A stretch of 50,795 bases of DNA. Source: a virus (lineage: Duplodnaviria; Heunggongvirae; Uroviricota; Caudoviricetes). The position numbers and the translations under genes are program-made. Location: positions 128,803 through 179,597 of IMG/VR virus record IMGVR_UViG_3300008262_000042; one strand, written 5' to 3'. This document shows, piece by piece, positions 14,910 through 40,458 of this stretch (positions are counted from its first letter, which is position 1; every line of letters starts with the position of its first letter). The notes beneath the pieces were generated by a model. It was not told the DNA's origin, ran no database searches, and was given only the letters and a program-made list of their open reading frames with translations.

Positions 14910-15033
14910 TAGTCAGGACAGGATTCGAACCTATACGATGTTTTATATCTGTTCCCCATGTGGCCTTTATGGGTATCTACATCTCACATTGTATTTCTAC
15001 TACTTAGCGTCTAGCCAATTGCGCCACCTGACT
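14910..15033 (-). ncRNA. tRNA-scaffold variable-core element, copy A
   Basis: AGUCAGG-UGGCG..D..GACGC-[unique core]-AUAGG-UUCGAAU-CCUGU-CCUGACU. Confidence 0.75.
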
Positions 15034-15038
15034 ATTTG

Positions 15039-15110
15039 AGCTCAGTAACAGAGTCGAACTGTTGTTTCAAGATTACAAATCTAGCGTTCTACCGATTGAA
15101 CTAACCGAGC
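15039..15110 (-). tRNA. trnT: tRNA-Thr(UGU)
   Basis: Cloverleaf, loop UUUGUAA. Confidence 0.88.
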
Positions 15111-15114
15111 AATA

Positions 15115-15203
15115 GAGGATGAGAAGTCCTCTGTGTTGTAAGGCTACTATTGTTTTAAGTTCCTTCTCTCAACATTTCAATTCCTTTCTCAAGAGAACAA
15201 CAC
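15115..15203 (-). ncRNA. Kissing-loop structured RNA, copy 1
   Basis: GUGUUG...CAACAC stem; loop UGAGAA complementary to loop UUCUCA; second copy at 29601. Confidence 0.6.
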
Positions 15204-15206
15204 CTG

Positions 15207-15275
15207 TTGCGTATATTAGTGTCGAACTAATCTAACATCGGATATGAGCCAATGTCGGTCGCCGGACCATACGCA
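15207..15275 (-). tRNA. Atypical tRNA with CAU anticodon (short D arm)
   Basis: Loop CUCAUAU, extended anticodon stem, T arm AUUAG-UUCGACA-CUAAU. Confidence 0.55.
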
Positions 15276-15417
15276 ATTTAAACACTGTTGGGATACCCGT
15301 CTCGTCCCAATCTTAACGGCTTTGTTAAAGTTTTACAACGCGTTGGCCGAGGGTGCTACTGCTTTTTACCTATGTCGGATTTGTCGACAATCCTACATAG
15401 AGACAGTCAGTGTCTAG

Positions 15418-15492
15418 TTGCGGGAGCAAGAATCGAACTTGCGTCATTTGGCTTATGAGACGAAGCTGGCACCATCTCCAGTCCACCCCACA
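15418..15492 (-). tRNA. trnM: tRNA-Met(CAU), initiator-like
   Basis: UGUGGGG/UCCCGCA acceptor, loop CUCAUAA, weak anticodon stem. Confidence 0.7.
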
Positions 15493-15502
15493 ATAATAAT
15501 TT

Positions 15503-15641
15503 GACCGAGAAACCTAGTCGCCTGTGTTGTTGTATCACAAGTTTTCAATTTGTTGCATTTACCATTTTGCTAATTCGCCATAGTGGCAAATATTGGAGTC
15601 GAACCAATAATTACGAAGTAAGGCAATCTATTACTACGGAC
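15503..15641 (-). ncRNA. YrlA-type Y RNA with an extra anticodon-like arm
   Basis: CCGUAGU...UUACUUCG stem, then T arm, closed acceptor stem UUUGCCA/UGGCGAA, D arm and an arm with AUUGAAAA. Confidence 0.75.
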
Positions 15642-15648
15642 AATAAGT

Positions 15649-15798
15649 TCAGCAAAGAATGTTTCCAACAGTTGTGTTACGTGCTCTACCACTGAGCTAT
15701 CTCCCAATAAGATTTCTTTTAATAGTTGGGAGAGATGGAATCGAACCACCGACCACGGCATTAGGAGTGCGAAGTAACTGTTTAGATTACTATTGCTA
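15649..15798 (-). ncRNA. yrlA: YrlA-type Y RNA (permuted tRNA-like domain)
   Basis: Ro stem + GGUGG-UUCGAUU-CCAUC, UCUCCCAA/UUGGGAGA closed acceptor stem, UAGCUCAGUGGUAGAGC D arm. Confidence 0.82.
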
Positions 15799-16046: not shown

Positions 16047-16352
16047 TTTTTTAAATAGTTTGTATCGCCTTCTAAGTAGGAAAATCATTAGCCCTTCCGT
16101 TTTATCGTAAGTAAGGCACGATCTGAAATCTTACGCGGAAATACAGTATTTTTCTGATTATTTATAACCTAAACCACTCACATCTTAGACTATGAGGTAA
16201 CAACTTTCACCTTTTCTCTTGAACCACTTTACATTTCAAGTCAGAATGTAATTGAGATAGCTATTCTCGTTTGTAGTTACTCTATTTTTCGCCCTGTAAC
16301 GGACAGTTTGTTCATTGTTACTGTTTAGTGTTAATCGATCCAAACTATCTAG

Positions 16353-16425: not shown

Positions 16426-16431
16426 AAAAAA

Positions 16432-17327: not shown

Positions 17328-17419
17328 TGGCGGAAGAGGTAAGACTCGAACTTACATAGCGCTCAGCACGCTAACCGGTTTTCAAGACCGGACCGATACC
17401 AATTTCGGATGACACTTCC
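17328..17419 (-). tRNA. trnS: tRNA-Ser(UGA), encoded CCA
   Basis: Loop CUUGAAA, long variable arm. Confidence 0.9.
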
Positions 17420-18120: not shown

Positions 18121-18771
18121 TTATCTTATGTCATACATCAATAAAAAATCCTCTACCTTACTTTTTATGTACTCAAAATTATTGTGAACCCATTTAATTC
18201 GTACAACTTTATATCCTTCACTTTCAATAATCTCATCTCTTTTAGTATCATAATCTTTTCTCGATTCATGTTGTTTTCCATCTATTTCTAAAACAATTTT
18301 TTTAGATTCAAAAACAAAATCTCCAAAAAACCGATTTATCTTTTTATCTCTAGTATATTCGATATTATTATAATTTAAAATATCGATCACTATTTTTTCA
18401 GCAAAAGATGGACTTTTATCTTTTCTGCTCGGATATCCATTATGAGTATTATTCGATAATCTAATATTTGCTGAATATTTAGCTGCGCACGATTTTCCGC
18501 AAAAACGTCGATTTGAATCTAATCTTACACTTATTGAATTGTTGCATTGTTTACATACTATTGTTTTATATTCGACTAGATGTTTTCCTTTTTTCCATGA
18601 TGTTCTACCTTTGATAGGAGATTCTCTACCTTTTAGCTTTTTACTAACTTTAACGTTAATCTCCTCTCTAGAATTTTTAGTACTAAAAGATCTAGCGCAT
18701 TTAATAGAGCAAAATCTTTTACTAGCATAAGAACCATTATGAGTAATATTACAATTTTCACATATAAACAT
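18121..18771 (-). CDS. Free-standing Vsr/DUF559-like endonuclease with Zn-binding modules
   Basis: CxxC / FCS..C repeats; S..E...DF......VLEIDG.QH.....D..RD......GY.V.RI. Confidence 0.8.
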   Translation of the reverse strand: MFICENCNITHNGSYASKRFCSIKCARSFSTKNSREEINVKVSKKLKGRESPIKGRTSWKKGKHLVEYKTIVCKQCNNSISVRLDSNRRFCGKSCAAKYSANIRLSNNTHNGYPSRKDKSPSFAEKIVIDILNYNNIEYTRDKKINRFFGDFVFESKKIVLEIDGKQHESRKDYDTKRDEIIESEGYKVVRIKWVHNNFEYIKSKVEDFLLMYDIR

Positions 18772-19079: not shown

Positions 19080-19718
19080 TTATAATTTTCTTCCTCTTTG
19101 CCATCCTTCTGGTATAGAATCCTCTTTTTTTATTTTTTTGTTTTCGATACCATTGGTAATCCACATTGTGCCGTATTGAGAATTATTTGAATTAGAATGT
19201 CTACCTTTGTGAGAATTACTAATTTTCTTTTTAGTTTCAGCAGAATGTGATTTCCCAGTCCAATCTAATCCATTTAATTCGCCTTTTTTATAAAGGCTTT
19301 TTAAACTATCTCGAATTCTATCGTTAACATACTTTTTAAATAAAAGATCTTCATCTTTCTTTTTATTTATTTTATAAGCGCCTGATCTAGATATGTTTTT
19401 TCTAACCTCATTACTTAAAATAGGCCAACCACCAGTTCCACCAGGTTTTAAGTTCATGCACATCTGATCTTTCAAAAGATCTTCATTAACGAGTTGCTTT
19501 TCTCTTTCTACTAAAGCTTCTCTAGATTCGAAGAATTCCAAGATCTCAAACTTGAAATTTTCTTTTCCATGATAATTTATCGAATGCCATAGTCTTTTAC
19601 CAGATCCTATATAGCCATCTTCTAAGTTATCCGTTGAGTGCATTCCTATATAAAATTTACCATTTTTTATGTTGGTAGTTTTATATACGAAATTATATTT
19701 TTTCTGTGTCCTTAGCAT
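19080..19718 (-). CDS. Seg-like GIY-YIG homing endonuclease with NUMOD3
   Basis: FVYKTTN..NGKFYIGMH....DGYIGSG; GKSHSAETKKKIS (NUMOD3); WITNG...IPEGW.RGR. Confidence 0.88.
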   Translation of the reverse strand: MLRTQKKYNFVYKTTNIKNGKFYIGMHSTDNLEDGYIGSGKRLWHSINYHGKENFKFEILEFFESREALVEREKQLVNEDLLKDQMCMNLKPGGTGGWPILSNEVRKNISRSGAYKINKKKDEDLLFKKYVNDRIRDSLKSLYKKGELNGLDWTGKSHSAETKKKISNSHKGRHSNSNNSQYGTMWITNGIENKKIKKEDSIPEGWQRGRKL

Positions 19719-20806: not shown

Positions 20807-21301
20807 TGGTGGACCTGGCGGGAATCGAACCCGCGTCTTACTATGGAATCATAATACCAACGTCTCACATGCTTAGTACTGATAAATGTGACGTATAGCT
20901 CTTCAGGAATTAACCTTTAGATAACTGGTTCTTTTATCTGCACCGTAAAGGGGCTACCCAATTGGGTAACGATTCCACCACCTGATTTTACGACTATCAG
21001 GAAAACATTGAGTATATGTAGACCTCTACATGAGTTGTTTCTACATTAAAATGCATAGCCTTTTAGATCATGCTTTATGCAAGTACTCGTTTGTTATTTT
21101 CTGTTGCCAGGGATAACTCCCCCACCGCTTATGCAGCTACTGCTACACTAGAGAAAATAGAAGCTAAGATAGCTTCACCTTCAGCGATACGAGCTTGTTT
21201 ATTTGCGTCGTTTATTGTTCTGCGCAGATTTAAAGACATCTAGCACTTCTGTCTGCATGTGGTACTACCATTCATCATAGCAATCAATACCGGACAGGCC
21301 C
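20807..21301 (-). ncRNA. ssrA: tmRNA
   Basis: GGGCCUG.../...UUCGAUU-CCCGC-CAGGUCC-ACCA with G3.U70; tag frame 21209-21129 ending VAVAA-stop. Confidence 0.9.
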
Positions 21302-21792: not shown

Positions 21793-21925
21793 ATATTTTA
21801 TTTTAAGTAGTTAGGACAGGATTTGAATTAATAGATAGACAAAAACTAATTTGATACCAAATTCGATTACGTTGAAATTTTTAATTTCATTTAATAGTTT
21901 TTCTTTCATAATTCTTATTATTTAG

Positions 21926-22048
21926 CAGTCAGGACAGGATTCGAACCTGTACGGGGTCTGGAGTGTGCGGTACCTATAACCTAACTTTTTTATACTCCCT
22001 ATTCCGAGGATGTTAGTCCCTCTGCGTCTACTTTTTCGCCACCTGACT
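21926..22048 (-). ncRNA. tRNA-scaffold variable-core element, copy C
   Basis: Conserved acceptor/D/T arms with a unique core; a truncated 3' half (copy B) lies at ~21809-21827. Confidence 0.75.
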
Positions 22049-22054: not shown

Positions 22055-22333
22055 TTAATTCATTGGCCTTTTACTCAAAATTTCATCAATCTGTTTTAAT
22101 ATCTTTCCGCTTGGGTCTGTTATAGGTAAAAGAGAAATAATGTCTAATCGAGTTTTCATCTCTTCTGTTAATCCCCAACCACTACTACATCTTTCAGCTT
22201 GTTCATCAAACATTTCTATAAACTTATTTTGAATAGCCATTCTTAGTGGTCCATCACCACCAAAAGGTACTTTGCTTCTATCAATTGGACCTATTTCGCA
22301 AAACCAATATTCTAACTTTTTTTTCTTTGCCAT
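22055..22333 (-). CDS. Hypothetical protein
   Basis: 92 aa ORF flanked by scaffold elements. Confidence 0.65.
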   Translation of the reverse strand: MAKKKKLEYWFCEIGPIDRSKVPFGGDGPLRMAIQNKFIEMFDEQAERCSSGWGLTEEMKTRLDIISLLPITDPSGKILKQIDEILSKRPMN

Positions 22334-22346: not shown

Positions 22347-22491
22347 TAGTCAGGACAGGGTTCGAACCTGTATGGTTAATCTGTATAACATAAATGGATA
22401 CTTTTTAGTATGTGAAGGATAAACTCTTCGACTATTTACACCACGTTAACCTTATCATGTTTTAAGCGTCTACCAATTTCGCCACCTGACT
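22347..22491 (-). ncRNA. tRNA-scaffold variable-core element, copy D
   Basis: Conserved arms with a ~90-nt unique core. Confidence 0.75.
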
Positions 22492-22632
22492 GTTTGCCTG
22501 TCTTTCCAAGCTGTCAACCATCGCACGTTCCTAATACTTGTTTAGGATATGCTCCGCTACTATCACTTCACGGTTACTCTCCCCTATCTCCTAAGAGCAT
22601 GGGCTACCACGTCGTTGTGTTGGATTTCTGCG

Positions 22633-22813
22633 TAGTCAGGACAGGGTTCGAACCTGTAAGATAATGTGAAATCATAAAAGGGAATTCGTTAATCATCATC
22701 TCCTTTATCCCAGTAATTGTAGCGTCTACCAAGTTAACATTAACCCCGTAGTGGATTCTAACCACATTATTTTTACAACTAGAACGGGGTTGTTAACATT
22801 CCGCCACCTGACT
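22633..22813 (-). ncRNA. tRNA-scaffold variable-core element, copy E (D-loop insertion)
   Basis: Conserved arms; the D loop carries AACCCCGU...GUGG-UUAGAAU-CCAC-U-ACGGGGUU. Confidence 0.7.
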
Positions 22814-22929
22814 AACACCACTATTATTTTTTTGGCCGTGATTGTGCCGCACTTACCTTTAGTGTATGTGACCGATAAGAACCTTACATCACATAACGAG
22901 AGTTCTATATATTTCACTCACAATTTTAG

Positions 22930-23008
22930 TAGTCAGGACAGGATTCGAACCTGTGTAAGGGGTGGGGTCTGCCACTATCTCTGCGCTATCCAACTACGCC
23001 ACCTGACT
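22930..23008 (-). ncRNA. tRNA-scaffold variable-core element, copy F
   Basis: Conserved arms with a 28-nt core and no anticodon arm. Confidence 0.75.
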
Positions 23009-23375: not shown

Positions 23376-23512
23376 GGACGTAAAATATGGGCGTTAATCT
23401 ATCAATTGATAATAAAAAAGATTCGCGTTGCTTTATATACAAATATAGTGCATTGCGAATCTTAAATAAAAATTAATCAACTAGATCGTAGAGTTGATCT
23501 TCGGAGTTGATC

Positions 23513-23770
23513 TTAGGCGTTTTGTAACCTTTCGATTTTAGTCGTGTTGTTAATACGGCCACGAGTGTAATCGTACGCTTTGTTTAGAATTCGCTCATTA
23601 ATTTGTTTTCCGCGTAATACATCTGATACGTGAGTTACAGAATAGTTGATACTACTTGCAATTGTAGTGATGTCACCGTTGCGAAGCTTTCTGTTAACTA
23701 ATGCCATTTTTTGGATGTACGTAAGCTTACGATAGCTTTGCGGTCGATTTGTTTCTTTTTTTCTTGCCAT
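23513..23770 (-). CDS. Basic HTH DNA-binding protein
   Basis: DITTIASSINYSVTHVSDVLRGK, XRE-like HTH pattern. Confidence 0.6.
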   Translation of the reverse strand: MARKKETNRPQSYRKLTYIQKMALVNRKLRNGDITTIASSINYSVTHVSDVLRGKQINERILNKAYDYTRGRINNTTKIERLQNA

Positions 23771-23840
23771 TTTTTTTAATTTAATTAAAGAATATAAAGT
23801 AAATATATGACAATTTTTTGATCTTAAAAAGTATTCGTTT

Positions 23841-24047
23841 TTAGTTTAATCGATGATCTTTAACATACATTCCGCTAAAGTTCACAAATTTGCACCAATT
23901 ATTGTATGCTTCTATGTCTTCGATTGTTGATAATGACCTATCTGGTTGCTTATTTGATTTAAGAGTACTATGCGTATATATAGGTTCGCCTTTTGCTCTT
24001 TCACCAAATATCTCTCGCTTTATTTTGCTAATTACTAATTTCAACAT
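23841..24047 (-). CDS. Hypothetical protein
   Basis: Coupled ORF in an operon. Confidence 0.5.
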   Translation of the reverse strand: MLKLVISKIKREIFGERAKGEPIYTHSTLKSNKQPDRSLSTIEDIEAYNNWCKFVNFSGMYVKDHRLN

Positions 24048-24766
24048 TATTTTTTTAATTTAAAGTAAATAAAGGTTCTTTCGCCTATTTTCTCAATTAT
24101 TGGTTCATAGCGACATGAAACAATAAATGCTTTTAAAGCGAGAGAATCGAATATACCATAATTGATCATTAAAGGACCAGTCCATGTATTAGTCGTTATT
24201 TTTAATTCATATCCGAGTTCACATATATCTTGATCTTTGTATTTTAATGCATCTATTGCGTTTTCTAAGTTTGGAAATTTATCAATTAATTCCATTTGAC
24301 TCTTAGAATCGCAACGCATATATAGGTTAACTAACTCTTTTTCAAATTCAGTAGAAGTTAGTTTTGCATCAACTGTATTTGCGCCACTTTTACTTTTAAA
24401 TGGATTATGACGCTGATCTGTTGGAATAAATATTTGATCTTCTATGCGTTGGCTAGAACATTCAGAAGCGTCTATTGTGCCTTTATTATCTGCATATCCA
24501 AGCAAATAGTTTATATGTTTACAATAAAACCAACTAGGTATATGATGCAGTACCTTCCATTTTCCTCGAGATACATTCTCTAACGCGCCTAATCTTTTTA
24601 GATAGGTTTGATACGTAGATGTTCTGTACATTCTTTGGCGATTTGAACGTTTCCACCATGTTTGATTTTCAAAACAACCTACTTTGTGATATAATTCGTC
24701 CGTAGTATATACTTGCCCTATAGGCAAAGAGTTGATAAATTCTTTAAATCTACTAAATAAAGTCAT
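24047..24766 (-). CDS. Hypothetical protein; possible winged-helix N-terminus, family-A-like C-terminus
   Basis: YLKRLG.LE...RG.W; ends with IYFKLKK like family A. Confidence 0.6.
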   Translation of the reverse strand: MTLFSRFKEFINSLPIGQVYTTDELYHKVGCFENQTWWKRSNRQRMYRTSTYQTYLKRLGALENVSRGKWKVLHHIPSWFYCKHINYLLGYADNKGTIDASECSSQRIEDQIFIPTDQRHNPFKSKSGANTVDAKLTSTEFEKELVNLYMRCDSKSQMELIDKFPNLENAIDALKYKDQDICELGYELKITTNTWTGPLMINYGIFDSLALKAFIVSCRYEPIIEKIGERTFIYFKLKK

Positions 24767-24786
24767 GCGTATGATTTTTAATTTTT

Positions 24787-25155
24787 TTAATATAAATGAG
24801 AATTGTCATATTCGTCTTCTACATATTGAACAACTGTTTTCTTTACTAACCACTTTTCTTTAACTACACCGCATTGCCTATCCTCGATCATAACTTGCCC
24901 AACTCCGTTATCTGCACAAAGCTCTTGTTCATCGTAACACTCAACAGCATCTTCATATGTATTGAAGGGTCCATAAGTACGCGTATCTGAATTTTTTTCG
25001 TATCCGTCAATAAGCTCATATGACATGCCTTCGCCACGTATACTAGCATCTACTTCAACTGCTATGTAGGGACTCGCTGTTACAAACCACATATTCGGCG
25101 TACCGTCATCGCCAATCATTTCTGAAGCCAATTTTTTAATCTCTTGTTGAGTCAT
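24787..25155 (-). CDS. Hypothetical acidic protein
   Basis: 122 aa ORF. Confidence 0.65.
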   Translation of the reverse strand: MTQQEIKKLASEMIGDDGTPNMWFVTASPYIAVEVDASIRGEGMSYELIDGYEKNSDTRTYGPFNTYEDAVECYDEQELCADNGVGQVMIEDRQCGVVKEKWLVKKTVVQYVEDEYDNSHLY

Positions 25156-25181
25156 ACTATTATTTGTTTTTTTATTATAAA

Positions 25182-25538
25182 TTAGCCTTTAATTAATTCG
25201 GCAAGCTGCAATACTTTTTCGAAAGGGATCGTCTGACAACCAACAATAACCACACCCTTCTTACGATCAACCTTAGCTGTATACTTTTCATTCAACTGAA
25301 CACCACTATAAGATTTACAGAATTCTTCAAACTCATCTAGACTAAGCTCTTTATAGCCCTCACCAGATCTAGAACCACCAATGTTAATACCGTCGTATTT
25401 CAAGATAGGGTACTCAGGGAAATCGGTTGCTTTATCTTTAACAGTACCTTCATAAACCGGCACGCCGTGTGCTAATGCTAGATCAATACAAGCCGTGTAG
25501 AAGATCTGATTCTTGGGTGCAATTACAAATTCTTTCAT
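25182..25538 (-). CDS. Family B hypothetical protein (LN..YTA...GCQT C-terminal module)
   Basis: Module shared with 26207, 34943 and 38366. Confidence 0.7.
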   Translation of the reverse strand: MKEFVIAPKNQIFYTACIDLALAHGVPVYEGTVKDKATDFPEYPILKYDGINIGGSRSGEGYKELSLDEFEEFCKSYSGVQLNEKYTAKVDRKKGVVIVGCQTIPFEKVLQLAELIKG

Positions 25539-25587
25539 AACTTTAATTTTGTTTTTTGTTTTTGATTTATTGTTTATTATTTTAATT

Positions 25588-25929
25588 TTAAGAAATAACT
25601 TTATAGTAGATTACTTGCGGATATTCGCCGAACACCCATACAGTAACTCCACACAGCCACATTTTATGCATATCAGGATAAACTATATAGTCACCTGTAC
25701 TAGCGCCGATTGTGTGAATGTCGCCAACGTATAGAAGCTTAGAATCGAAACCGTCAAAATGCTCAGTACTAATTTCTAATGTTATCTCGCTACCGCACTC
25801 GCTTAGTATATCTAACCAAGTATCTGCACCGGCAACCATTAGTAGATCTTCTTTGTCTCCGCCTTCTTGGATATATTTAGGAAGGTCGGCATACCACCGA
25901 CCCTCCTCGTTATAGAATCTTATTCTCAT
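25588..25929 (-). CDS. Conserved hypothetical protein
   Basis: WY.DLP...MVAGAD..LD...WLC.V...FG.YP motif. Confidence 0.7.
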   Translation of the reverse strand: MRIRFYNEEGRWYADLPKYIQEGGDKEDLLMVAGADTWLDILSECGSEITLEISTEHFDGFDSKLLYVGDIHTIGASTGDYIVYPDMHKMWLCGVTVWVFGEYPQVIYYKVIS

Positions 25930-25932
25930 ATA

Positions 25933-26223
25933 CTATTGAATTGTTAGTTTGTAAAGTTTTTTAACTAGATCAAAGCTATATTCGCTTGAAGCTGCCTCTA
26001 CTACCTCTTTTTCGTAGTTAACTACGCCTTCGTAGTCATCGGTTAACTGAATAGTTGGAGGTATCAAGTTCTTATATTTGTCGCAGAATTCAATAAATGC
26101 GTCTATACTAATAACCGAGTTGGAACCAACACTTTTTGAAGCGCATACTTCACGGCCGTCAAATTTAACTATAGGAAATTTCATATACTTACTATCCGAA
26201 TTACGTTCATACAAACGCCTCAC
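25933..26223 (-). CDS. Family B-like hypothetical protein
   Basis: Similar to 25182 (PI.K.DG...S.D.F.EFC). Confidence 0.55.
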   Translation of the reverse strand: MRRLYERNSDSKYMKFPIVKFDGREVCASKSVGSNSVISIDAFIEFCDKYKNLIPPTIQLTDDYEGVVNYEKEVVEAASSEYSFDLVKKLYKLTIQ

Positions 26224-26653
26224 GCTCCGGTGAACGCTTAGATTTAGGTAAATTGATTAAATCGTACAACTCTTTTAATTTTTCGTATGTCATTGTTTGG
26301 CAACCGATCTTGATCTTTCTTTCAGATTCTTTTAATTCTGCTGTGTACTCCGGGTTTAGGTATAGATGCTTTTGGCTCCGGCTCCATAATAGATTCCTAT
26401 CGCTTATAGAGGATGAACAAGCATCTCGGTTTGAAGAATACGAGTATATTTCATCAACTCGGTAGCTAGTTTCTTCAATCGCTTCAGTTAGATCATCACT
26501 CAAGTACTTCATGGGGAACCATGTATACTCGACACCCTCAGCATCGCGACCACATACAATTGAATCACCTTGAGGTGTTCCTAACATTACAATTCCCCAA
26601 CTGCCTGCACCAGTCTTAATTAACATTCCAGATTTTAAATCAGATTTTTTCAT
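26207..26653 (-). CDS. Family B hypothetical protein
   Basis: MKKSDLKSGM N-terminus; LNPEYTA...IGCQT. Confidence 0.7.
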   Translation of the reverse strand: MKKSDLKSGMLIKTGAGSWGIVMLGTPQGDSIVCGRDAEGVEYTWFPMKYLSDDLTEAIEETSYRVDEIYSYSSNRDACSSSISDRNLLWSRSQKHLYLNPEYTAELKESERKIKIGCQTMTYEKLKELYDLINLPKSKRSPEREAFV

Positions 26654-26676
26654 AACTTGTTTTGTTTTTTTGTTTT

Positions 26677-26991
26677 TTATAATATAATATCGTCTTCTCC
26701 AAATTCTTGTATTAATTCTTTTTTCATTGCACGAGGGCCCGGTGATTTACCGAACCACTTTGTCATGAATTTGCCGATAGATAATAAACCAGAGTCTACT
26801 AACTTTTGATCTTTTGTCATGTTTAGAGGCTGCAAACAAATTTCGTTTTTGCCATAATAAACTCTAACAAAGCAATCTGGGTACATCGCTGAAAATTTAG
26901 TAGCTGCTAAATTCGGATTTGGAGTTTCCCATTTTTTTGTGAAAACTTGTTTGCCTTTTTTATCTTTTACTATAACGTGAGCTTTTACCAT
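26677..26991 (-). CDS. Hypothetical protein
   Basis: 104 aa ORF. Confidence 0.65.
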   Translation of the reverse strand: MVKAHVIVKDKKGKQVFTKKWETPNPNLAATKFSAMYPDCFVRVYYGKNEICLQPLNMTKDQKLVDSGLLSIGKFMTKWFGKSPGPRAMKKELIQEFGEDDIIL

Positions 26992-27144
26992 AATTCTTAA
27001 TTAGTTTAAATAGATTATACAAATATCAGAAGGCAATCCTTCAATAATGTCTACCGGAATTGTGATTTTACTATTTTTCATTTTGAAAAATTTTTTAAAA
27101 ATAATGGAATGTCTCGTAAGATTTAGTTTTCTATCTATCAACTA

Positions 27145-27816: not shown

Positions 27817-27856
27817 AACTTTTATTTTATTTTTTGTTTATAATTAATAATATTGA

Positions 27857-28084: not shown

Positions 28085-28103
28085 GATTAATTGATTTAAT
28101 ATT

Positions 28104-28619: not shown

Positions 28620-28656
28620 AATTTGATTTTTGATTATAAAAAGATAATGACTTTAT

Positions 28657-28890
28657 TTAATAAAATAATCTTGCTGTTGCTCGTACTTTGTATTGCACAT
28701 CTACAATATCGCCTAACTCGAATATATCGATACGACATTTTGCTTCTTCGGCGGTAATTTCCTCTTCGTCTATATACTCGTTAACACGATCTAATACTAT
28801 ATCAAGGTCACCGATAAAGATTGTTTGTTCATTTTCTGAGTCGATCGCGATATACGTACTACGTTTTGGTAATTTTGTTTTTTTAGACAT
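28657..28890 (-). CDS. Hypothetical protein
   Basis: 77 aa ORF. Confidence 0.6.
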   Translation of the reverse strand: MSKKTKLPKRSTYIAIDSENEQTIFIGDLDIVLDRVNEYIDEEEITAEEAKCRIDIFELGDIVDVQYKVRATARLFY

Positions 28891-28959
28891 AACTATTCGT
28901 TTGGTGAAATGTAAAAGTACCCCATAGGCTTGAAATAAAAAAATTTCGGTGAAAATAGT

Positions 28960-29135
28960 CTATTGGTTTCCAATAAAGAATTTACAACTGATTGGTAATC
29001 AAGGGGCATAGGATCCATTGAAAACCAATCAGTTGCACCCGGAGCTGTTTGGGAGCTCATGGTTAGCGTACGCTATGGTTGCGTATAATATGCTATATAG
29101 TAGATTTTACGCTGTCCTATAAGATGGAGCAGCTC
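28960..29135. repeat. Copy 4 of the dispersed repeat with IHF-like boxes
   Basis: CAACTGATTGGTAATCAA; ATTGAAAACCAATCAGTTGCACCC...GAGCTCATGG. Confidence 0.65.
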
Positions 29136-29148
29136 CAAAACGCGCTAT

Positions 29149-29349
29149 TTAGACAATATCGCAATAATCACCCATAATAGCTAATGCTTCATCATACGAA
29201 TTACTAGAGAATACCTTTTCGGTCATTTCTTTAGCTTCATCATGCATACCCGCTTTTTTAAGTGCTTTTGAACAGATACCGATTAAATTAAAAACGTTGC
29301 CGTCTTCTCCGATAAGTTTTGCTTTTGGTTTGATTTTAGTTTGTTCCAT
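29149..29349 (-). CDS. Conserved small hypothetical protein
   Basis: KLIGEDGNVFNLIG....ALK.AG...SYDEAL motif seen in phages and mobile elements. Confidence 0.7.
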   Translation of the reverse strand: MEQTKIKPKAKLIGEDGNVFNLIGICSKALKKAGMHDEAKEMTEKVFSSNSYDEALAIMGDYCDIV

Positions 29350-29512
29350 TTTTACTTGTTTAGTTAAAAATATATTTTATTAGAGAAAATAAAAACATAC
29401 TCACAATTGTTAATATAAAACCTCCTGATAAATATAGAACAATATAATATTCAGGATCAGACATAAAATCGTGAATTAGTGTTTTTATTCTTTTCATTTT
29501 TTTAATTTTTAG

Positions 29513-29596
29513 TAGTCAGGACAGGATTCGAACCTATATACCTTTGGAGGAGCCTACTGCCCAGCACCAACCGTCTACCAATTGCGCCACCTGACT
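29513..29596 (-). ncRNA. tRNA-scaffold variable-core element, copy G
   Basis: Conserved arms with a unique core. Confidence 0.75.
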
Positions 29597-29600
29597 ATTT

Positions 29601-29698
29601 GAGGATGAGAAGTCCTCTGTGTTGAGTAGGTTGTCTTCTTACATTTCTGTAACGGATAGCCTCTTATCATTCGCATTCCTTTCTCAAAGGAACAACAC
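29601..29698 (-). ncRNA. Kissing-loop structured RNA, copy 2
   Basis: Same ends as 15115-15203, different middle. Confidence 0.6.
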
Positions 29699-29830
29699 AA
29701 TTTGTAGTAATAAACCAATAGACTTACACGCCTATGTCAGGGCTTTCATTACTGTTTGAATTAATCCTTTTTTACAGGTTAGCCCCCACTCAGTCTTGCG
29801 CTGACAACAATTTATCACTACAACTTTTTA

Positions 29831-29934
29831 TGTGGACTATAAAGTCTTACGATTAAATCACACCTAGATACGAACCCTGATAAATCAGTCTTACGATAGA
29901 TGTGATAAAAGATACGAACCCTTTATAGTCCACA
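29831..29934. repeat. 14-bp inverted repeat enclosing two duplicated modules
   Basis: TGTGGACTATAAAG/CTTTATAGTCCACA; GTCTTACGAT x2 and AGATACGAACCCT x2. Confidence 0.75.
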
Positions 29935-30142
29935 ATGGTAAACATCAAACCAAGATTTTAACTGAGATCGTTTAAACAGTACGAATGAAGAATCTTGTGT
30001 ATATTCGCATGATGCATAACCTTTCTTATCAAAGATCTTTTACGTCTAATTTTCATACGCTTATAAAACCTAAGCGACTTTGCTGACCGTTTCTTGATTA
30101 CAAATACTTTACGTAATTCCGAACTACTTGTTATCATATTAA

Positions 30143-31442: not shown

Positions 31443-32135
31443 TTATTGTTTCTTCTTGAAATATATCACTGAAGATAGTTTTAGTTCAATGTTACTGTGA
31501 ATAATATCAGCTTTTGTATTAAGTTCTGAGTTTATATATAAGCCGCAGCAACGTGTATCAACTGGCACATTCGCGGTTCCTGCGATGCCTTGAATTAGCT
31601 CTATGCCTTCTAATTCAGTGTATGAGTCTGTTTCATAACTATATACAAACAGCTTTGATGATAGTCTTTCAAGATCAGTGTGACTATCTGATACGATACG
31701 TACGTACTCAGGTCCGTCTTTAAATAGTTGTGGAAACTTAGCTTTAATCTTAGCTTTCCATGTAGTATCAGCTGCTTTGTAAGCCTCAGTAATAAAGGAC
31801 GCTTTTACATTTACTTTTTTATCATATAAGTTAGGCACCTCTTTTTTAATCTTCTCTTTCCACTCAGTACATGCTTTTTCATATGCCTCGAGTACAAACT
31901 CACGATTCACTGTATATGAGTCTTCAGTATTAGCGAATACTAGATCTGAATGATTATAGCTATTTCCTCCATTATTTTGCCATTCAACTCTTACAGGTAA
32001 ACTAGACACGTCCCTAATAGCTGATACAGTGCCAACAACGTCGCGTGGATTATTTATACTATTCTGTGCATAGTATTTGCTTGATGTAGCAATCATTACT
32101 TTGTCTCCTACTTCGAATTTAATTACTTTTGCCAT
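31443..32135 (-). CDS. Family A protein
   Basis: Paralogue of 32151, 27145 and 37596. Confidence 0.78.
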   Translation of the reverse strand: MAKVIKFEVGDKVMIATSSKYYAQNSINNPRDVVGTVSAIRDVSSLPVRVEWQNNGGNSYNHSDLVFANTEDSYTVNREFVLEAYEKACTEWKEKIKKEVPNLYDKKVNVKASFITEAYKAADTTWKAKIKAKFPQLFKDGPEYVRIVSDSHTDLERLSSKLFVYSYETDSYTELEGIELIQGIAGTANVPVDTRCCGLYINSELNTKADIIHSNIELKLSSVIYFKKKQ

Positions 32136-32150: not shown

Positions 32151-32849
32151 TTATTGTTTTGTTTTAAAGTAAATTGCGGTAACTCCTGTACTAATGTCAG
32201 ATGCGTGACTAACAACTATATCAGAGCTTTTTACTAATCGACCACAAACATAAATTCCACAACCGGCCGCTTCCTCAGGCACATTATCTTTACCTGCCGC
32301 TATAGTAAGTAATTCTATCCCGTCTAATTCTACATATTTGCTTGCGCGCGTATCATATGTATAAAGTTTAGCGTTTAATCTACTAACGTTTTCAACGTCC
32401 TTAGGTACAATGCTTGTGCATTGAACGTCTTTATATAATTCAGGGAAATTTGATCTGATCTTAGCTTTCCATATAGTATCAGCTGCTTTATATGCTAATC
32501 GGATAAAAGATTCTTTTACCGGTATTTCGTCATCGTATAAATTAGGTACCTCAGCAGCAATCTTTGCTTTCCATTCCGAACATGCACCTTTATAAGCTTC
32601 GAGTACAAACTCTCTACGCGCAAATACTACTAATTCAGCGCTGTCTTCATTAAATAGAACGAGATCGTACTCTCTGTATGAATTTTCCTCTCCATTACTC
32701 CATTTTACTCTGATCCACACAGCACCCTTATTACGTTCAATAATTGTGCCTACGATATTACGGGGATTGGATGGTCTATCTTCTTCATAATATTCACTTG
32801 TTTTAGCGATCTTTACTTTGTCTCCTAACTTTAATTTTACTTTTGCCAT
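32151..32849 (-). CDS. Family A protein
   Basis: Tandem paralogue. Confidence 0.78.
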   Translation of the reverse strand: MAKVKLKLGDKVKIAKTSEYYEEDRPSNPRNIVGTIIERNKGAVWIRVKWSNGEENSYREYDLVLFNEDSAELVVFARREFVLEAYKGACSEWKAKIAAEVPNLYDDEIPVKESFIRLAYKAADTIWKAKIRSNFPELYKDVQCTSIVPKDVENVSRLNAKLYTYDTRASKYVELDGIELLTIAAGKDNVPEEAAGCGIYVCGRLVKSSDIVVSHASDISTGVTAIYFKTKQ

Positions 32850-33206: not shown

Positions 33207-33339
33207 TGATCAGGACAGGATTCGAACCTATGACTTAAGACTGACCCCTTACTGACCTTTCGGTATCCGCGCCCTACCAGACTTGGTGCGATATTTCATT
33301 ATCTTAGGGAGTTGCTCTAACCAACTGAGCTACCTGACT
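33207..33339 (-). ncRNA. tRNA-scaffold variable-core element, copy H
   Basis: Same acceptor/T arms but a different D arm (UAGCUCAGUUGGUUAGAGC). Confidence 0.7.
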
Positions 33340-33579: not shown

Positions 33580-33677
33580 CAGTCAGGACAGGATTCGAAC
33601 CTGCAAGAACTCTTTTTATTCTTCGCTCTGGTTACTGTATTTCGCCAGCCACGGCTTTACCATTCCGCCACCTGACT
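33580..33677 (-). ncRNA. tRNA-scaffold variable-core element, copy I
   Basis: Conserved arms with a unique core. Confidence 0.75.
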
Positions 33678-33957: not shown

Positions 33958-34054
33958 CAGTCAAGACAGGATTCGAACCTGTACACTGGATTTATTCGAT
34001 CATATTCATCCCAACCCCTACGGCTGTTGCGTCTACCAATTCCGCCACTTGACT
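33958..34054 (-). ncRNA. tRNA-scaffold variable-core element, copy J
   Basis: Compensatory acceptor change AGUCAAG/CUUGACU. Confidence 0.78.
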
Positions 34055-34060
34055 ATAAAA

Positions 34061-34209
34061 AATGGTAAATGCCCGATGCGTTTCCGTAAAACCCGCGTAT
34101 TCCTCAGCCCTAAGGGCTTCATTCGGGAGTAACTGCTACCTTTTGCGCTTTAAAAAATTTGGGGTCTGCAGCAAACTATTACGTTTGGTTTCCTACTTCA
34201 TTTACCATT
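34061..34209 (-). ncRNA. Unidentified structured RNA
   Basis: 11-bp closing stem AAUGGUAAAUG/CAUUUACCAUU, internal hairpins, flanked by two scaffold elements. Confidence 0.5.
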
Positions 34210-34236
34210 CAAATAAATCGCCATTTATATTTTTTG

Positions 34237-34336
34237 TAGTCAGGACAGGATTCGAACCTGTAATGTACGCAAGTGACACCAGAGACAGGAATCGAACCTC
34301 CCACTTGTGTGCGTCTACCAATTCCGCCACCCGACC
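34237..34336 (-). ncRNA. tRNA-scaffold variable-core element, copy K (second T loop in the core)
   Basis: GGUCGGG/CCUGACU acceptor; core contains AGG-UUCGAUU-CCU. Confidence 0.72.
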
Positions 34337-34586: not shown

Positions 34587-34739
34587 TATGTTATTTTTAT
34601 GTGTAAATGTACTATTTTTATTCTGCCAATAGAGCGGGGTTGTTAATATTCCGCCACCTGACCGTATTTAAAAGAGCAGAAATGTAAAATTATAGCCTTA
34701 TTTTGACATAAAAAAATTTATTTTAGCTTTTTTTAAAAA

Positions 34740-37047: not shown

Positions 37048-37105
37048 ATAAATAGTAATTTAAAAAAGCCCCTTATATTTCAAAGGGGCTTTGTGTGAAG
37101 AAATA

Positions 37106-37564
37106 TTATACCAATCCTTTGTTCGCCATCTTTTTCATTAGAATAGCTTTACGATCTTCCTTGTCAAGAAGTTCTTCCCACTCTTTCTTCAATTCGTTCA
37201 GTTCATCAAGCTTATCTTTTTGCTCAATGATTTGAATACGAAGCATACAGTCTTGCTTCCATTCTTCTTCGGTACCACCTTCGATTTTAACAACTGGATA
37301 TTCATCGCGTCCTAATTCAGAATAAGCACTTTCGATAGCTTTAATGCGTGATTGTACGCTAGCAAATGCCATAACAACCTTATCAATGCTTGTTTCTGAT
37401 TTAAGGTCAACTGTCGATCCATCGCTAAGTCGTAAAGAACCTTTAGTCGGAGTCTTATACACTGAATCTTGAATGTGTTTGTAAGACTTAATTTGTTCGT
37501 TAAGAACTGCGAGTGCTTCTGGTGCGCTTGTAACTGTTACTACTTGTAAATTTGTTTTTGCCAT
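37106..37564 (-). CDS. Hypothetical coiled-coil protein
   Basis: 152 aa; terminator-like hairpin at ~37065-37092. Confidence 0.7.
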   Translation of the reverse strand: MAKTNLQVVTVTSAPEALAVLNEQIKSYKHIQDSVYKTPTKGSLRLSDGSTVDLKSETSIDKVVMAFASVQSRIKAIESAYSELGRDEYPVVKIEGGTEEEWKQDCMLRIQIIEQKDKLDELNELKKEWEELLDKEDRKAILMKKMANKGLV

Positions 37565-37595
37565 GATCTTTGTTTTTTTGTTTTTGATTTATTGT

Positions 37596-38279
37596 TTATT
37601 TGTTTTTGAAATATATTACTTTAGAGCCAGTAGGTAATGTTTTTATTATTAGCGTCTTATCTTTTAAAAAGCTACAATCGATATAAAAGCCACAACCTTT
37701 TGCTTCTTCAGGAACACCGGAAAGACCTGCTATTCCATCTATTAATGAGACGCCTTCGATACTACGATAACTACCTCCACTAATTGTAGTATATAAGTAA
37801 GAACCTAAGTCTTCAGGGTTGACTCCCGGTACCAGGCAAGTATACGCATCTTTAAATAATTTCGGAAACGCTTGTTTTAGGTTCTTTTTCCATTCTGCGT
37901 CAGCAGCTTTATATGCATCACGAATAAACGATACTCTTACTTGATGAGTAAACGCGAACAGATTTGGAATCTCTGATTCGATTTTTCTTTTCCAATCTGA
38001 GCATGCTGAATCATATGCGCGTAATACAAATTCGCGAGATACATCTACTGTTGGTTCAGAAGATGACGCTAAAACAAGATCGTGTTCTTCGTAAGAGTTA
38101 ACAATAATATTTGGCCAGCGTACTTCAATAGGCAGACCATCTTTCTTATAACATTTTACTTCGCCTACTGTATCGATAGGATTGCTAGGATCTCCTTTTA
38201 TGTAATATTCACTGGTTTCAGCGATCATTACTTTGTCTCCGATTTTAAACTTTTTGCGTGCATTTGTTTGTTTTTGCAT
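37596..38279 (-). CDS. Family A protein
   Basis: Paralogue. Confidence 0.78.
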   Translation of the reverse strand: MQKQTNARKKFKIGDKVMIAETSEYYIKGDPSNPIDTVGEVKCYKKDGLPIEVRWPNIIVNSYEEHDLVLASSSEPTVDVSREFVLRAYDSACSDWKRKIESEIPNLFAFTHQVRVSFIRDAYKAADAEWKKNLKQAFPKLFKDAYTCLVPGVNPEDLGSYLYTTISGGSYRSIEGVSLIDGIAGLSGVPEEAKGCGFYIDCSFLKDKTLIIKTLPTGSKVIYFKNK

Positions 38280-38365
38280 ATACTATGTTTTTTTATGTTT
38301 GATTTTGCCCCTGTGGGCCCGGTGATTTTGAACTATTTTACTGAAATTCTGGTGCCTGGTTTTTA

Positions 38366-38800
38366 CTATACTAATCCCAATTTTATAAAAGCTTTATTGA
38401 GCTCCTTAGCGACACTGACATCGATCGTTTGACAACCTACTTTGATACCTGATTTGCTGATAACCGCTGTATACTCGGAGTTTAATTTTACTGATATTGA
38501 ACTCGATTTCCAGTCTCTGTACTGCTCTTTAGCTGTAGAAATTGCAGTATGAAAATCTGTGTCAAGGTCAATGACTTTTGTACCACTACCTGGGTTACTA
38601 AAACTCATCATAGGACCAGTAGCGTCTCCTTGCCAGAAATCTGATACATAGACACATGTACAACGCTCGTAGTCCTTTACTGTAAATAAGTTGAATTTAT
38701 CGTTCCATCTGTAACCGATTGTTTTAAGCTCTTTTACAAATGCTTCATAGATAGAAAAATATTTTGATTTTACTGCGAATGCGATTACTCCTTGTTTCAT
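38366..38800 (-). CDS. Family B hypothetical protein
   Basis: LNSEYTA...VGCQTI. Confidence 0.7.
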   Translation of the reverse strand: MKQGVIAFAVKSKYFSIYEAFVKELKTIGYRWNDKFNLFTVKDYERCTCVYVSDFWQGDATGPMMSFSNPGSGTKVIDLDTDFHTAISTAKEQYRDWKSSSISVKLNSEYTAVISKSGIKVGCQTIDVSVAKELNKAFIKLGLV

Positions 38801-38993
38801 AATGAATGTTTGTTTTTATGTTTTTGTATATATGATTAAAAAATATTTCGAAATTTCCGATGCTGGTAAAAAGGACCTAAAGTTAGGCCCCCGGGGCTAG
38901 CCCTTCCTAGCTACATTAATTAGCGCTTTGGCGGGGCGCTAACAACCGCTTAGCGACCTACTAGCATGTACTAGTAGACCGCTAGCAGTATGA

Positions 38994-40349
38994 TTAGTTG
39001 GCGTAGCTATCGGCTAACTGCCATAAGCCTTGATTCAGTACCATATCCTGTACAGGGTTGGTGATGCCACGGGCGGTACGTTCGTTCATTTGGAAGCCGC
39101 CTTTGATGATGTTCTCCTGTACGGCGTTAAAGGTTCTCCATAAGGATTGGCCTTTGTCTTCTACGCGGCGAGTCTCTAATACAGAGTTGATCTCGTAGTC
39201 TTCTACTTGCCGATCTTCACCTAATCTAAGTAACAAGGCATCTACTGCAAATTGTCTACGTTGTTTAGCAGTCATCTCTACCATGTTCCAGTCATTGATC
39301 TTATTGATTACCTTAGGAAGGGTATCTACCTTTGAACTGATCAGGTCTTTTACTTCTTGGAAGGTATACTTAGTATGTCTTTCTTTGAAGCTTCCCATAT
39401 CCATGCTCTTGATCATTAAGCCATTGGAACATACTAATCTGAACAGTCCCATTTCAAATTGGATTGGCCTGCTGCCGTCATGGCTATTCAGTAATACGAT
39501 CGTAGGTCTTGCTTCTAATCCTCCTTCAGAATCCTTTACATACAGATCAGGATGTTGGAAGGTTACGATGTGGGTACCATAGGTATTCCTTAAGGGAATC
39601 TTTGTCTTAGACTGTTTAGCGTCTGTTAATACATAACCCATGTCTTTCATGTAGTCGATGATCTCCGTAGTTGGAGTGAACTTATATCGCTTAAGGTTAA
39701 TATAATCTGCGGGCTTGGTTGCAAAGATAGCCGGTGCTTTTTCCTTTGCTACTTCCATTGAGATGCCGGTAATGTTGCTGTACATTGTTGCTTGTCTTGC
39801 CATAACTCTTATTGTTTTTGTTTTAGCTCGTTTATCAATACCTTCTAAACCCGCAAGACCATGTATAATCTGTATTTTACTCTTTACGTATGAACCATCC
39901 TCCAGCTTTACATATAGATCTGCGCTTTTCGCCTTATCGACGTCTTTCGAATCAAATAAAGCACATACGTACTTATTAGTAGGGAATAACTCAGGGAATT
40001 TGTCTTCGATCCGGGATTTCCAATCTGAACATGCGGCTTCGTGTGCTTGCTTAATGAACTCTTCATCAACTGTATATGCACCGCTGCGGTTCTTTTTAGA
40101 TGGTTTGCTCTTTGTATACGTGGCTGACCATACTAAGTCAAGATCGCACCAATCATATACATTAGTTTGCGCATTATCCCAAAGTACTTCTAATGGATAG
40201 CCATCGTTATCTTCATCTACAGAGATGATCTTACCGTCCATATTAATTGGGTTACTACTGCCTGAATCTTTAGGCTCGTCGTAATAATACTGACTGGTTT
40301 TAGAAAGTCTTACGATGTCTCCTAATTTTAATTCATTTACTTTTGCCAT
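38994..40349 (-). CDS. Family A N-terminal part fused in frame to a DUF932-family protein (own start at 39803)
   Basis: DUF932 motifs APAIFA...RY.F.PT, LLNSHDGS, GLFRLVCSNGL, LW.TFN.VQEN...GG. Confidence 0.75.
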   Translation of the reverse strand: MAKVNELKLGDIVRLSKTSQYYYDEPKDSGSSNPINMDGKIISVDEDNDGYPLEVLWDNAQTNVYDWCDLDLVWSATYTKSKPSKKNRSGAYTVDEEFIKQAHEAACSDWKSRIEDKFPELFPTNKYVCALFDSKDVDKAKSADLYVKLEDGSYVKSKIQIIHGLAGLEGIDKRAKTKTIRVMARQATMYSNITGISMEVAKEKAPAIFATKPADYINLKRYKFTPTTEIIDYMKDMGYVLTDAKQSKTKIPLRNTYGTHIVTFQHPDLYVKDSEGGLEARPTIVLLNSHDGSRPIQFEMGLFRLVCSNGLMIKSMDMGSFKERHTKYTFQEVKDLISSKVDTLPKVINKINDWNMVEMTAKQRRQFAVDALLLRLGEDRQVEDYEINSVLETRRVEDKGQSLWRTFNAVQENIIKGGFQMNERTARGITNPVQDMVLNQGLWQLADSYAN

Positions 40350-40377
40350 AACTTTGATTTTATTTATTTATTAATTG

Positions 40378-40458
40378 TAGTCAGGGCAGGATTCGAACCT
40401 GCATCTCCTCCGTTTGCTTCGGTGTTTGATGTAATCTAACCAATTATACGACCTGACT
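40378..40458 (-). ncRNA. tRNA-scaffold variable-core element, copy L
   Basis: Compensatory T-stem change GCAGG/CCUGC. Confidence 0.72.

Follow-up and report, generated by a model that had tools for sequence, protein, structure and literature searches.

The final 50.8 kb of a 179,597-base virus record (G000; IMG/VR IMGVR_UViG_3300008262_000042, positions 128,803 to 179,597), hereafter the window at its full length of 50,795 nucleotides, carries a family of repeated tRNA-like elements in which constant acceptor, D and T arms, referred to here as the shell, enclose unrelated cores in the place of the anticodon arm. We found eleven complete shells of 79-181 nt and two fragments, all on the minus strand (Table 1). 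In our reading, which we hold with slightly better than even confidence, each is a tRNA-Leu-like shell whose exchangeable, structured core is swapped through ordinary recombination and which is cut by the host to a stable RNA, freeing its neighbors. The RNA fold and the shuffling are well supported by comparison of related sequences, transcription is partly shown, by contigs covering one copy in one study, and we rate the family as a new kind of element.

A preliminary description of the window, made without database searches, had listed eleven complete copies and fragments near 21809 and 34630, and all were recovered. Twelve matches to the 21-nt 3′ half (at most four substitutions) were present in the 179,597-base genome, all inside the window, and none in five first-order Markov copies of the genome. 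The shells have the canonical 7-bp acceptor stem, D arm, and 5-bp T arm with a TTCRA loop; three of the eleven complete copies have G73 in place of A73, and no copy encodes CCA. The compensatory changes that had been reported are real (AGUCAAG/CUUGACU in 33958-34054 and GCAGG/CCUGC in 40378-40458), and the three arms described as constant include D arms that vary more than claimed, as in the class I, tRNA-Met-like arm of 33207-33339. An open reading frame (ORF) begins 13-28 nt past position 73 (14-29 nt from U72) in seven of the eleven complete copies and after the 3′ fragment, again as described, and four complete copies precede non-coding sequence. The proposed alternation of shells with single ORFs is only partial, since three array spacers are non-coding (22814-22929, 22492-22632, and 34055-34236). 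The 32-aa ORF following the 21926 shell extends into the 3′ fragment at 21808..21829, and the 22633 copy reaches 181 nt because of an extra 66-nt insert in its D loop. Rfam returned only weak generic tRNA matches for the window copies and eight other loci, with seven of the eleven above the tRNA gathering score. It holds no family for the shells, and no description was found in the accessible main texts of the literature, where the literal sequence was also searched; the accessible portions of PMC12386605 and PMC7162821 make no mention of such repeats.

Shells are widespread in other phage sequences. We estimate from 6 of 64 parts that about 1,500 IMG/VR stretches contain the exact 22-nt 3′ half. 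It is also present in 20 stretches of 185,579 species genomes, all of which are contigs of metagenome-assembled genomes, 11 of the 20 labelled Bacteroidota; these are probably binned phage DNA. A T arm and acceptor strand were confirmed behind 102 of 115 distinct 5′ halves, most of the remaining 13 being near misses or cut off. Among 22 long records, shells number 1-14 per record and three or more groups of head proteins can be distinguished (about 60% identity to G000 in eight records, about 43% in six, lower in one, and no match in seven). From a final sample of 514 records, 477 cores formed 327 clusters, 243 of them singletons (Chao1 ~880), with cores shorter than 20 nt left unclustered. 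Two of the window's eleven cores have relatives in the sample; the core of the 33580 shell recurs in locus L044 and one related to that of the 14910 shell in L011/L041, in both cases between different flanks. ARAGORN called 80 of 403 records tRNAs, including 11 as Leu(UAA) and 10 as Ile(UAU), and a few look canonical. All 629 neighboring tRNA calls are on the same strand as the shells. The next element after 380 shell copies was an ORF in 165 cases and non-coding sequence in 203, and ordinary tRNAs stood before an ORF in 80 of 380. A promoter-like motif lies directly upstream of 40 of 397 copies; matches in a sigma-70 promoter scan were at chance level, and no terminator-like site was found at any shell.

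Two further observations concern the breadth of the family. Shells whose acceptor and T stems differ from these in compensated fashion occur in L367, L293-L297, L201, L233, L283, and L118, some of them with cores also seen in the main subtype; the family is wider than the search patterns used. In L009, a repeat of about 25 nt comprising a ribosome site and start flanks a shell and is found again ahead of unrelated ORFs at several loci; it is a second kind of gene-start repeat in shell-bearing phages.

Base changes in the acceptor, T, and D stems and in the 15:48 pair, together with the structured cores, demonstrate that the shell evolves as a folded RNA. Subtype B changes both pair 5-68 and pair 6-67 (AGTCCTG/CAGGACT in 40 of 405 records, versus AGTCAGG/CCTGACT in 282). 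Variants of the T and D stems are mostly compensated, although the D-stem count accepts any fitting partner and is thus biased toward pairing. Counted per core cluster (n=238), positions 15:48 were A:U in 217 and G:C in four, with another combination for G15 in one and for C48 in six (Fisher 8e-6), and two window copies have the G:C form. An eighth acceptor pair (-1:73) showed no covariation. For the hairpin and pair-sharing analyses, mis-parsed records with another 5′ half in the upstream flank were removed. In 245 cores, GNRA hairpins numbered 23, compared to 9.1±3.2 in shuffled cores (maximum of 17 in 100 shuffles) and to 3 on the opposite strand, where 3.3 were expected; T-loop hairpins numbered 8 versus 0.08 expected. 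Pairing between the two edges of the core was seen in 45 of 147 cases versus 22.5±4.0.

The shell resembles Bacteroidota tRNA-Leu(CAG/GAG), with which it has in common the inner acceptor pairs, the D arm, A15:U48, A73, and the style of the T arm. A run of 23 of 23 nt in the 22347 copy is identical to the 5′ part of these genes, which were Leu(CAG) or Leu(GAG) in six of six loci examined, and the T arm is also common to a Leu(GAG) gene in a Saprospiraceae-labelled bin. Unlike tRNA-Leu, the shells are without an anticodon or variable arm, have outer acceptor pairs like those of tRNA-Ile, and reach 14 near-identical copies per genome. For these outer pairs, as for the trailer, the match is to Flavobacteriaceae tRNA-Ile(GAU). 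In some copies the D arm is that of another tRNA, and a few have a complete, normal anticodon arm.

Cores, D-loop inserts, and flanks have been exchanged both between and within genomes, as alignment of related loci demonstrates. Among pairs drawn from 403 records, 150 shared the core only, 88 the upstream flank only, 47 the downstream flank only, 24 both flanks without the core, and six all three, with the same pattern in an earlier set; the loci behind these pairs overlap and are related, and the pairs, not being independent events, give less support. One orthologous promoter-proximal site holds six core clusters across eight phages. In three close genomes (G001, G002, and G106), flank blocks are mostly 90-100% identical and cores are permuted among sites, so the fixed order with neutrally drifting cores by which the preliminary description would have recognized plain tRNA pseudogenes was not seen. 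Of 28 pairs between these genomes with anything in common, two shared all three parts, five both flanks around a different core, and seven a core located elsewhere. One core is present twice in G002 and likewise in G106, and three of nine genome groups carry a duplicate core. Between G001 and G002, five of 12 internal divergent blocks are bounded on both edges by shell halves, which by arithmetic estimate account for about 5% of the aligned DNA; these comprise three core swaps and two gains or losses of a unit. A further block lies inside a core and another elsewhere. The genome comparison thus supports the earlier suggestion of recombination handles for accessory genes, with the addition that the exchange includes the cores.

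The 92-aa ORF of the window provides an example at the gene level. In ten homologous loci, it lies between two shells with other cores in two, with a complete or degenerate shell on one side only in seven, and next to none in one. Cores also cross acceptor subtypes, as seven of 53 subtype-B cores have subtype-A relatives with identity up to 100% over 40 nt. The acceptor subtype itself follows the genome: loci with at least two copies, which partly overlap, were A only in 96, B only in 19, and mixed in one. D-loop inserts are present in six of 403 records, and the window insert has a relative in L367 with paired changes, accompanied by a different core and acceptor. The insert was also considered as a tiny transposon with a 9-bp duplication; this was rejected, as the relative retains the stem with paired changes.

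Contigs identical to 22635-22883 were identified in two metatranscriptome runs from one study. They span the longest shell to within 2 nt of position 73, along with 70 nt of upstream spacer, and both runs also contain exact contigs of the G000 tmRNA and of the GOLLD region. Assembled contigs indicate presence only and give no information on strand, ends, or level. DNA runs covered the ORF stretch 23471-29473, for which both RNA runs lacked contigs, a rough control against DNA carry-over. Among the RNA contigs listed, there was no exact match to other shells or to ordinary tRNAs, which is uninformative, short RNAs being lost from such libraries; the 40378 copy lay outside the stretches compared. 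Shell joints in the DNA runs are dominated by the shells of other phages and were left unused. Post-transcriptional addition of CCA was sought in 88 metagenome stretches with the 3′ half followed by CCA; these were uninformative, as all 80 listed were contigs over 1 kb with an internal match, i.e., genomic variants.

Non-coding sequences next to the shells include recurrent modules. The one upstream of the 29513 shell (29597-29960, minus strand) has long-range paired ends, relatives in 31 loci, and RNA contigs at 29630-29961. Another, between the 14910 shell and tRNA-Gly (14690-14909, minus strand), is covered by an RNA contig, and its relatives in 20 loci often directly follow a shell or tRNA. 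A short GAAA-capped hairpin motif (22494-22520, minus strand; no Rfam match) closes many different spacers just before a shell and forms the largest upstream cluster. Finally, a non-coding stretch between tRNA-Glu and tRNA-Asp (16093-16328, minus strand) has its own RNA contigs in both metatranscriptome runs, with no Rfam match and no relative among the fetched loci.

According to our favored account, host RNase P, RNase Z or exonucleases, and the CCA-adding enzyme would treat the shell as a pre-tRNA, protecting the core. Its release would free the downstream short-leader mRNA or non-coding RNA, either as by-product or as purpose. RNase P reads a 7-bp acceptor stem and T arm, as stated for YrlA (PMC4201824), and Escherichia coli both processes and protects tRNA shells in which another RNA takes the place of the anticodon arm (PMC3753655); from these we infer that a stable shell RNA may be released. 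Punctuation of mRNA through RNase P/Z, one of three roles raised in the preliminary description, is plausible; with 165 of 380 copies before an ORF and 203 before non-coding sequence, it would not be specific to mRNA. Another of the roles, a tRNA-scaffolded RNA, agrees with the folded tRNA shape, the structured insert, and the presence of one copy in RNA libraries. The cores would act through their shape, most likely as protein-binding decoys or aptamers, rather than through base pairing or decoding, and shape-based binding is our best guess.

Guide systems combine a constant handle with a variable insert, and this layout is what recommends the guide version of the scaffold role, in which cores would pair with host or phage targets. 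No support for it came from searches of both arrays against 401 Bacteroidota genomes, where recurrent matches fell only in the D-arm region (tRNA-Leu and tRNA-Met) and, among the matches listed, those to cores were scattered, 21-44 nt long, and near chance. The search scored two candidates per genome, with 545 further matches unlisted and the host not identified, and within these limits the lack of a recurrent core match speaks against guides. Since the cores are also hairpin-rich and have no strong match elsewhere in G000 among the matches listed, we give guide or antisense RNAs almost no credence. Decayed or intron-containing tRNA genes are just as improbable and largely refuted. They would account for the seven copies above the Rfam tRNA gathering score and for the ARAGORN calls, and the long tRNAs of Lak phages have been read as containing introns (10.1101/356790). 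However, an anticodon-like arm (5-bp stem and 7-nt loop) follows the D arm in six of 245 cores, the same as the 6.0 expected by chance; bases at the core edges are conserved for no more than 2-3 nt, and class I register pairing was found in nine of 147. In addition, the ends are far more constant than the cores, their changes fall in compensated pairs, and the order of copies is not fixed.

The shell could instead be a DNA handle, i.e., a junction like the PeSL repeats discussed below combined with a harmless processing site, whose cores are jobless scraps of captured phage RNA. The mapping of junctions, the 243 singletons among 327 core clusters, the weak folding, the occurrence of some cores in diverged shells or without any shell, and the higher frequency of a following ORF compared to ordinary tRNAs (165 versus 80 of 380) are all consistent with this. 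Cores that remain 85-100% identical across unrelated flanks and acceptor subtypes, strand-specific enrichment of GNRA and T-loop hairpins, and self-closing core edges argue against it, although captured pieces could import hairpin features and the evidence is therefore not decisive; overall we find neutral cargo rather doubtful. A proposal of about the same low standing, which is compatible with our account and extends it, is that the shell is a chargeable tRNA mimic, leucylated by the host leucyl-tRNA synthetase (LeuRS) and serving either to decoy tRNA-attacking anti-phage enzymes or to soak up LeuRS or EF-Tu, with cores diversifying toward different host proteins. The leucine identity set of E. 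coli comprises A73, A15-U48, G18G19, and A20a, and tRNA-Leu variants without anticodon and variable arms remain chargeable (PMC9976931). The variable portion of the shell is exactly the portion that LeuRS ignores. The whole set, tested together with U8:A14, U54-U55-C56, and A58 and following E. coli rather than Bacteroidota rules, is present in 256 of 403 records (A73 in 368, A15 in 368, U48 in 355, and G18G19 in 372). In the window, however, only five of the 11 copies have it. G73, an anti-determinant for LeuRS (PMC9976931), occurs in 28 of 403 records, G15:C48 and class I D arms are tolerated, and the set may be mere inheritance from tRNA-Leu. Judging from these bases, leucine charging is a real possibility and not a requirement. 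The most far-reaching proposal is a natural, diversifying RNA display library of host-matured, leucine-charged decoys or aptamers, swapped by a dedicated short-homology process at the base of the acceptor stem. We consider this unlikely, and would be equally tentative in proposing, within it, that its several hundred structured domains target host translation and anti-phage proteins.

Several observations weigh against the account of a host-processed shell with a functional, exchangeable core. Four loci of 12-21 kb with relatives of the DUF932 gene have no shell at all; because of this, and of copy numbers from 1 to 14, we regard the shell as accessory. Single-sequence folding is weak (z of -1.9 to +0.5 for ten window copies and -2.9 for the 181-nt copy), core folding z averages -0.57 with the sense strand no better than the antisense, and seven members of the largest core cluster display no two-sided change within the core. 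On its upstream side, the RNA contig extends past the predicted RNase P site by 70 nt with no sign of a cut at A1, and its 3′ end is uninformative for processing because it falls on a repeat where assemblers break. The shells are not the sole junctions, since for five of the 12 divergent blocks that distinguish G001 from G002 an edge falls within or at an ordinary tRNA or a tRNA-like arm. D-arm variants (positions 8-14) follow the core and not the upstream flank (17 of 21 versus 1 of 17 at position 9), which means that in many 5′ exchanges the homology was limited to 7-8 bp, a short length for UvsX. Rare 3′ variants are shared within genomes at chance (24 of 426 pairs versus 23.3±6.0), indicating no homogenization.

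With ordinary tRNAs also serving as junctions, and with no reverse transcriptase or intact integrase found in 22 long records, ordinary phage recombination between short repeats is the simplest and likely engine of exchange, which is also what was proposed for PeSL (PMC2839356). One crossover in either constant half would swap the upstream or downstream module, and a two-anchor copy event, in which break repair is primed by one half and rejoins at the other, would replace the core in place. Likely tools are the UvsX, gp32, and SbcCD-like proteins of the phage. Exchange at 7-8 bp would need either selection for rare fold-preserving events or a helper at the acceptor-stem base. Movement of the whole shell in the manner of a MITE or SINE (inverted ends TA-GTCAGG...CCTGAC-TA), by a transposase, integrase, or reverse transcriptase, would fit core-only sharing as the commonest class (150 pairs) and a clean presence or absence at two independent empty sites (six records), one of which has a 9-bp A/T-rich direct repeat; loss by slippage also fits. 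Against such movement, target-site duplications are no commoner in 399 records than in shuffled flank pairs, the acceptor type is tied to the genome while cores cross types, and orthologous sites occupied by a different core (89) far outnumber the empty ones. The 22 long records contain no RVT_1 and no intact phage integrase PF00589 (one broken and one sub-threshold match), transposase families not having been searched in them. Among 116 scanned G000 ORFs there is no transposase, reverse transcriptase, or intact integrase, the integrase signal being one weak match (7e-4) on a DUF3008 protein. We therefore think a mobile element very improbable. A reading of the opposite strand as a GTAG-type REP was also set aside, with no RAYT-like gene seen among the scanned ORFs.

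Table 1 Shells and associated features of the window (window positions; "on" indicates distance past the shell in the direction of the minus strand)
Feature	Position	Strand	Description
Complete shell	14910..15033	-	124 nt; in tRNA cluster directly after tRNA-Thr
3′ fragment	21808..21829	-	T loop, T-stem 3′ strand, acceptor 3′ strand; 62-aa ORF 15 nt on
Complete shell	21926..22048	-	123 nt; D loop without GG; G73; 32-aa ORF 16 nt on
92-aa ORF	22055..22333	-	Between two shells; homologues in L289 and L290 likewise, with other cores
Complete shell	22347..22491	-	145 nt; 23 nt identical to Bacteroidota tRNA-Leu(CAG/GAG); 92-aa ORF 13 nt on
Complete shell	22633..22813	-	181 nt; D-loop insert and core; exact RNA-library contigs 22635-22883
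D-loop insert	22733..22798	-	66 nt; second variable slot of 22633 shell
Complete shell	22930..23008	-	79 nt; G15:C48; non-coding spacer after; ARAGORN tRNA-Pro
ORF with N-terminal 70-aa domain	27145-27816	-	
Complete shell	29513..29596	-	84 nt; 45-aa ORF 15 nt on; conserved non-coding module before
ORF with N-terminal 70-aa domain	31443-32135	-	
ORF with N-terminal 70-aa domain	32151-32849	-	
Complete shell	33207..33339	-	133 nt; class I (tRNA-Met-like) D arm; G15:C48; 93-aa ORF 24 nt on
Complete shell	33580..33677	-	98 nt; G73; 72-aa ORF 15 nt on
Complete shell	33958..34054	-	97 nt; compensatory AGUCAAG/CUUGACU; G73; 83-aa ORF 23 nt on
Complete shell	34237..34336	-	100 nt; core with second T-loop-like stretch; 182 nt non-coding after
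5′ fragment	34630..34663	-	Acceptor 5′ strand, D-stem 5′ strand, start of D-loop insert of 22633-22813 type
ORF with N-terminal 70-aa domain	37596-38279	-	
DUF932 ORF with N-terminal 70-aa domain	38994-40349	-	451 aa; starts 28 nt after 40378 shell
Complete shell	40378..40458	-	81 nt; GCAGG/CCUGC T-stem variant; ARAGORN tRNA-Val

G000 encodes a T4-like major head protein, portal, and terminase, together with UvsX-like, gp32-like, and SbcCD-like proteins. Its window holds 24 ordinary tRNA calls, a tmRNA as a separate gene (20807-21301), a GOLLD RNA, and a TROVE protein. The sequencing runs that contain the stretch are mostly lake and freshwater metagenomes. Leaders in G000 are A-rich and without a Shine-Dalgarno motif, and its promoter motif is TAnnTTTG, which are Bacteroidota traits. 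Together with the Bacteroidota labels of 11 of the 20 matches in cellular genomes, these traits suggest that the host is likely a member of the Bacteroidota. Close relatives of G000 were not found in IMG/VR, where the best DUF932 matches had 59-62% identity, and INPHARED phages gave only 25-28-nt matches to tRNA arms and one ORF match.

Other features of the genome are recorded here in their own right. The GOLLD RNA (12126-12552, minus strand; 239 bits) lies directly upstream of the TROVE/Ro60 gene (10501-12042, minus strand), and exact RNA contigs (12215-12758) extend about 200 nt past the 5′ end of the Rfam GOLLD model. A YrlA-like match of 35 bits, below the gathering score of 69, is present at 15659-15768 (minus strand) in this Ro60-encoding genome. 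The tRNA cluster contains a group I intron match beside an HNH ORF (13457-13656 and 13624-14061, minus strand) and two further endonuclease-like ORFs (18121-18771 and 19080-19718, minus strand), and a tRNA-Sec-like match without an ARAGORN call is located at 17332-17419 (minus strand; 46.7 versus a threshold of 47 bits). Five window ORFs have an N-terminal domain of 70 aa in common (phrog_11307/9469/18715); the four DUF932 relatives found align only to residues 178-451, which suggests a domain fusion. Outside the window, an exact 114-bp direct repeat is present at the start of the record (G000:C1 1-114 and 803-916).

The shells represent a large, unannotated phage RNA family that is concealed by mis-calls, as ARAGORN assigns an arbitrary anticodon to 80 of 403. 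If the RNAs are matured, the family would supply several hundred small, evolved RNA domains together with a shell for expressing them, and it would make testable what the many odd tRNA-like genes of large phages do. If host tRNA-processing enzymes cut out the shell, as is likely, the result would be an RNA display library that is natural and shuffles itself. That exchange takes place over 7-8 bp of homology poses a further puzzle, this one for phage recombination.

In comparison to known systems, the shells fail a defining feature of tRNAs, intron-containing tRNAs, PeSL, Y RNAs, tmRNA, allo-tRNAs, MITEs or SINEs, and integron arrays. YrlA Y RNA and tmRNA likewise join a tRNA-mimic domain with D and T arms and an acceptor to a non-tRNA domain, and YrlA of Mycobacterium smegmatis is cut by RNase P and gains CCA (PMC4201824), but both are single-copy with conserved cargo (a Ro60-binding stem or a tag ORF). 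No shell matches the Rfam families RF02553 (Y RNA) or RF00023 (tmRNA), a Ro60/TROVE gene is present in two of 22 long records and in G000, and the G3-U70 pair expected of tmRNA is U-A in the shell. Irregular or allo-tRNAs also form arrays of non-canonical tRNA-like genes of obscure function, some in phages, but have 8/4 or 9/3 stems and an anticodon arm (Mukai et al., PMC5389517), whereas shells are 7/5 and have none. The long tRNAs of Lak phages keep an anticodon arm and have an intron that is fixed for a given tRNA (10.1101/356790), in contrast to the shuffled inserts described here. Integron cassette arrays differ in that the 22 long records have no intact tyrosine-recombinase integrase (PF00589). 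PeSL of T4-like phages are short repeats in the variable genome region, before small uncharacterized ORFs, that act as crossover points for gain, loss, and replacement; they comprise an early promoter, a terminator hairpin, and a ribosome site, with no dedicated recombinase known (Arbiol et al. 2010, PMC2839356). Shell repeats in a T4-like phage similarly mark such junctions between close phages, but each is a two-part, tRNA-shaped RNA gene enclosing an exchangeable insert, with a promoter-like motif at 40 of 397 copies and no terminator-like site. The engineered tRNA scaffold of Ponchon, Dardel, and colleagues (PMC3753655) keeps the acceptor, D, and T arms and replaces the anticodon arm with a stem-closed foreign RNA; it is a laboratory tool with one insert per construct and demonstrated processing, whereas shells are natural and multi-copy, with hundreds of inserts exchanged between sites and processing predicted from their form. 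As DNA, the shells thus behave like PeSL and, as RNA, likely in the manner of the engineered scaffold, while being a member of neither, and they unite two previously separate ideas, the shuffling of modules guided by repeats and a tRNA shell for foreign RNA, hitherto a laboratory invention.

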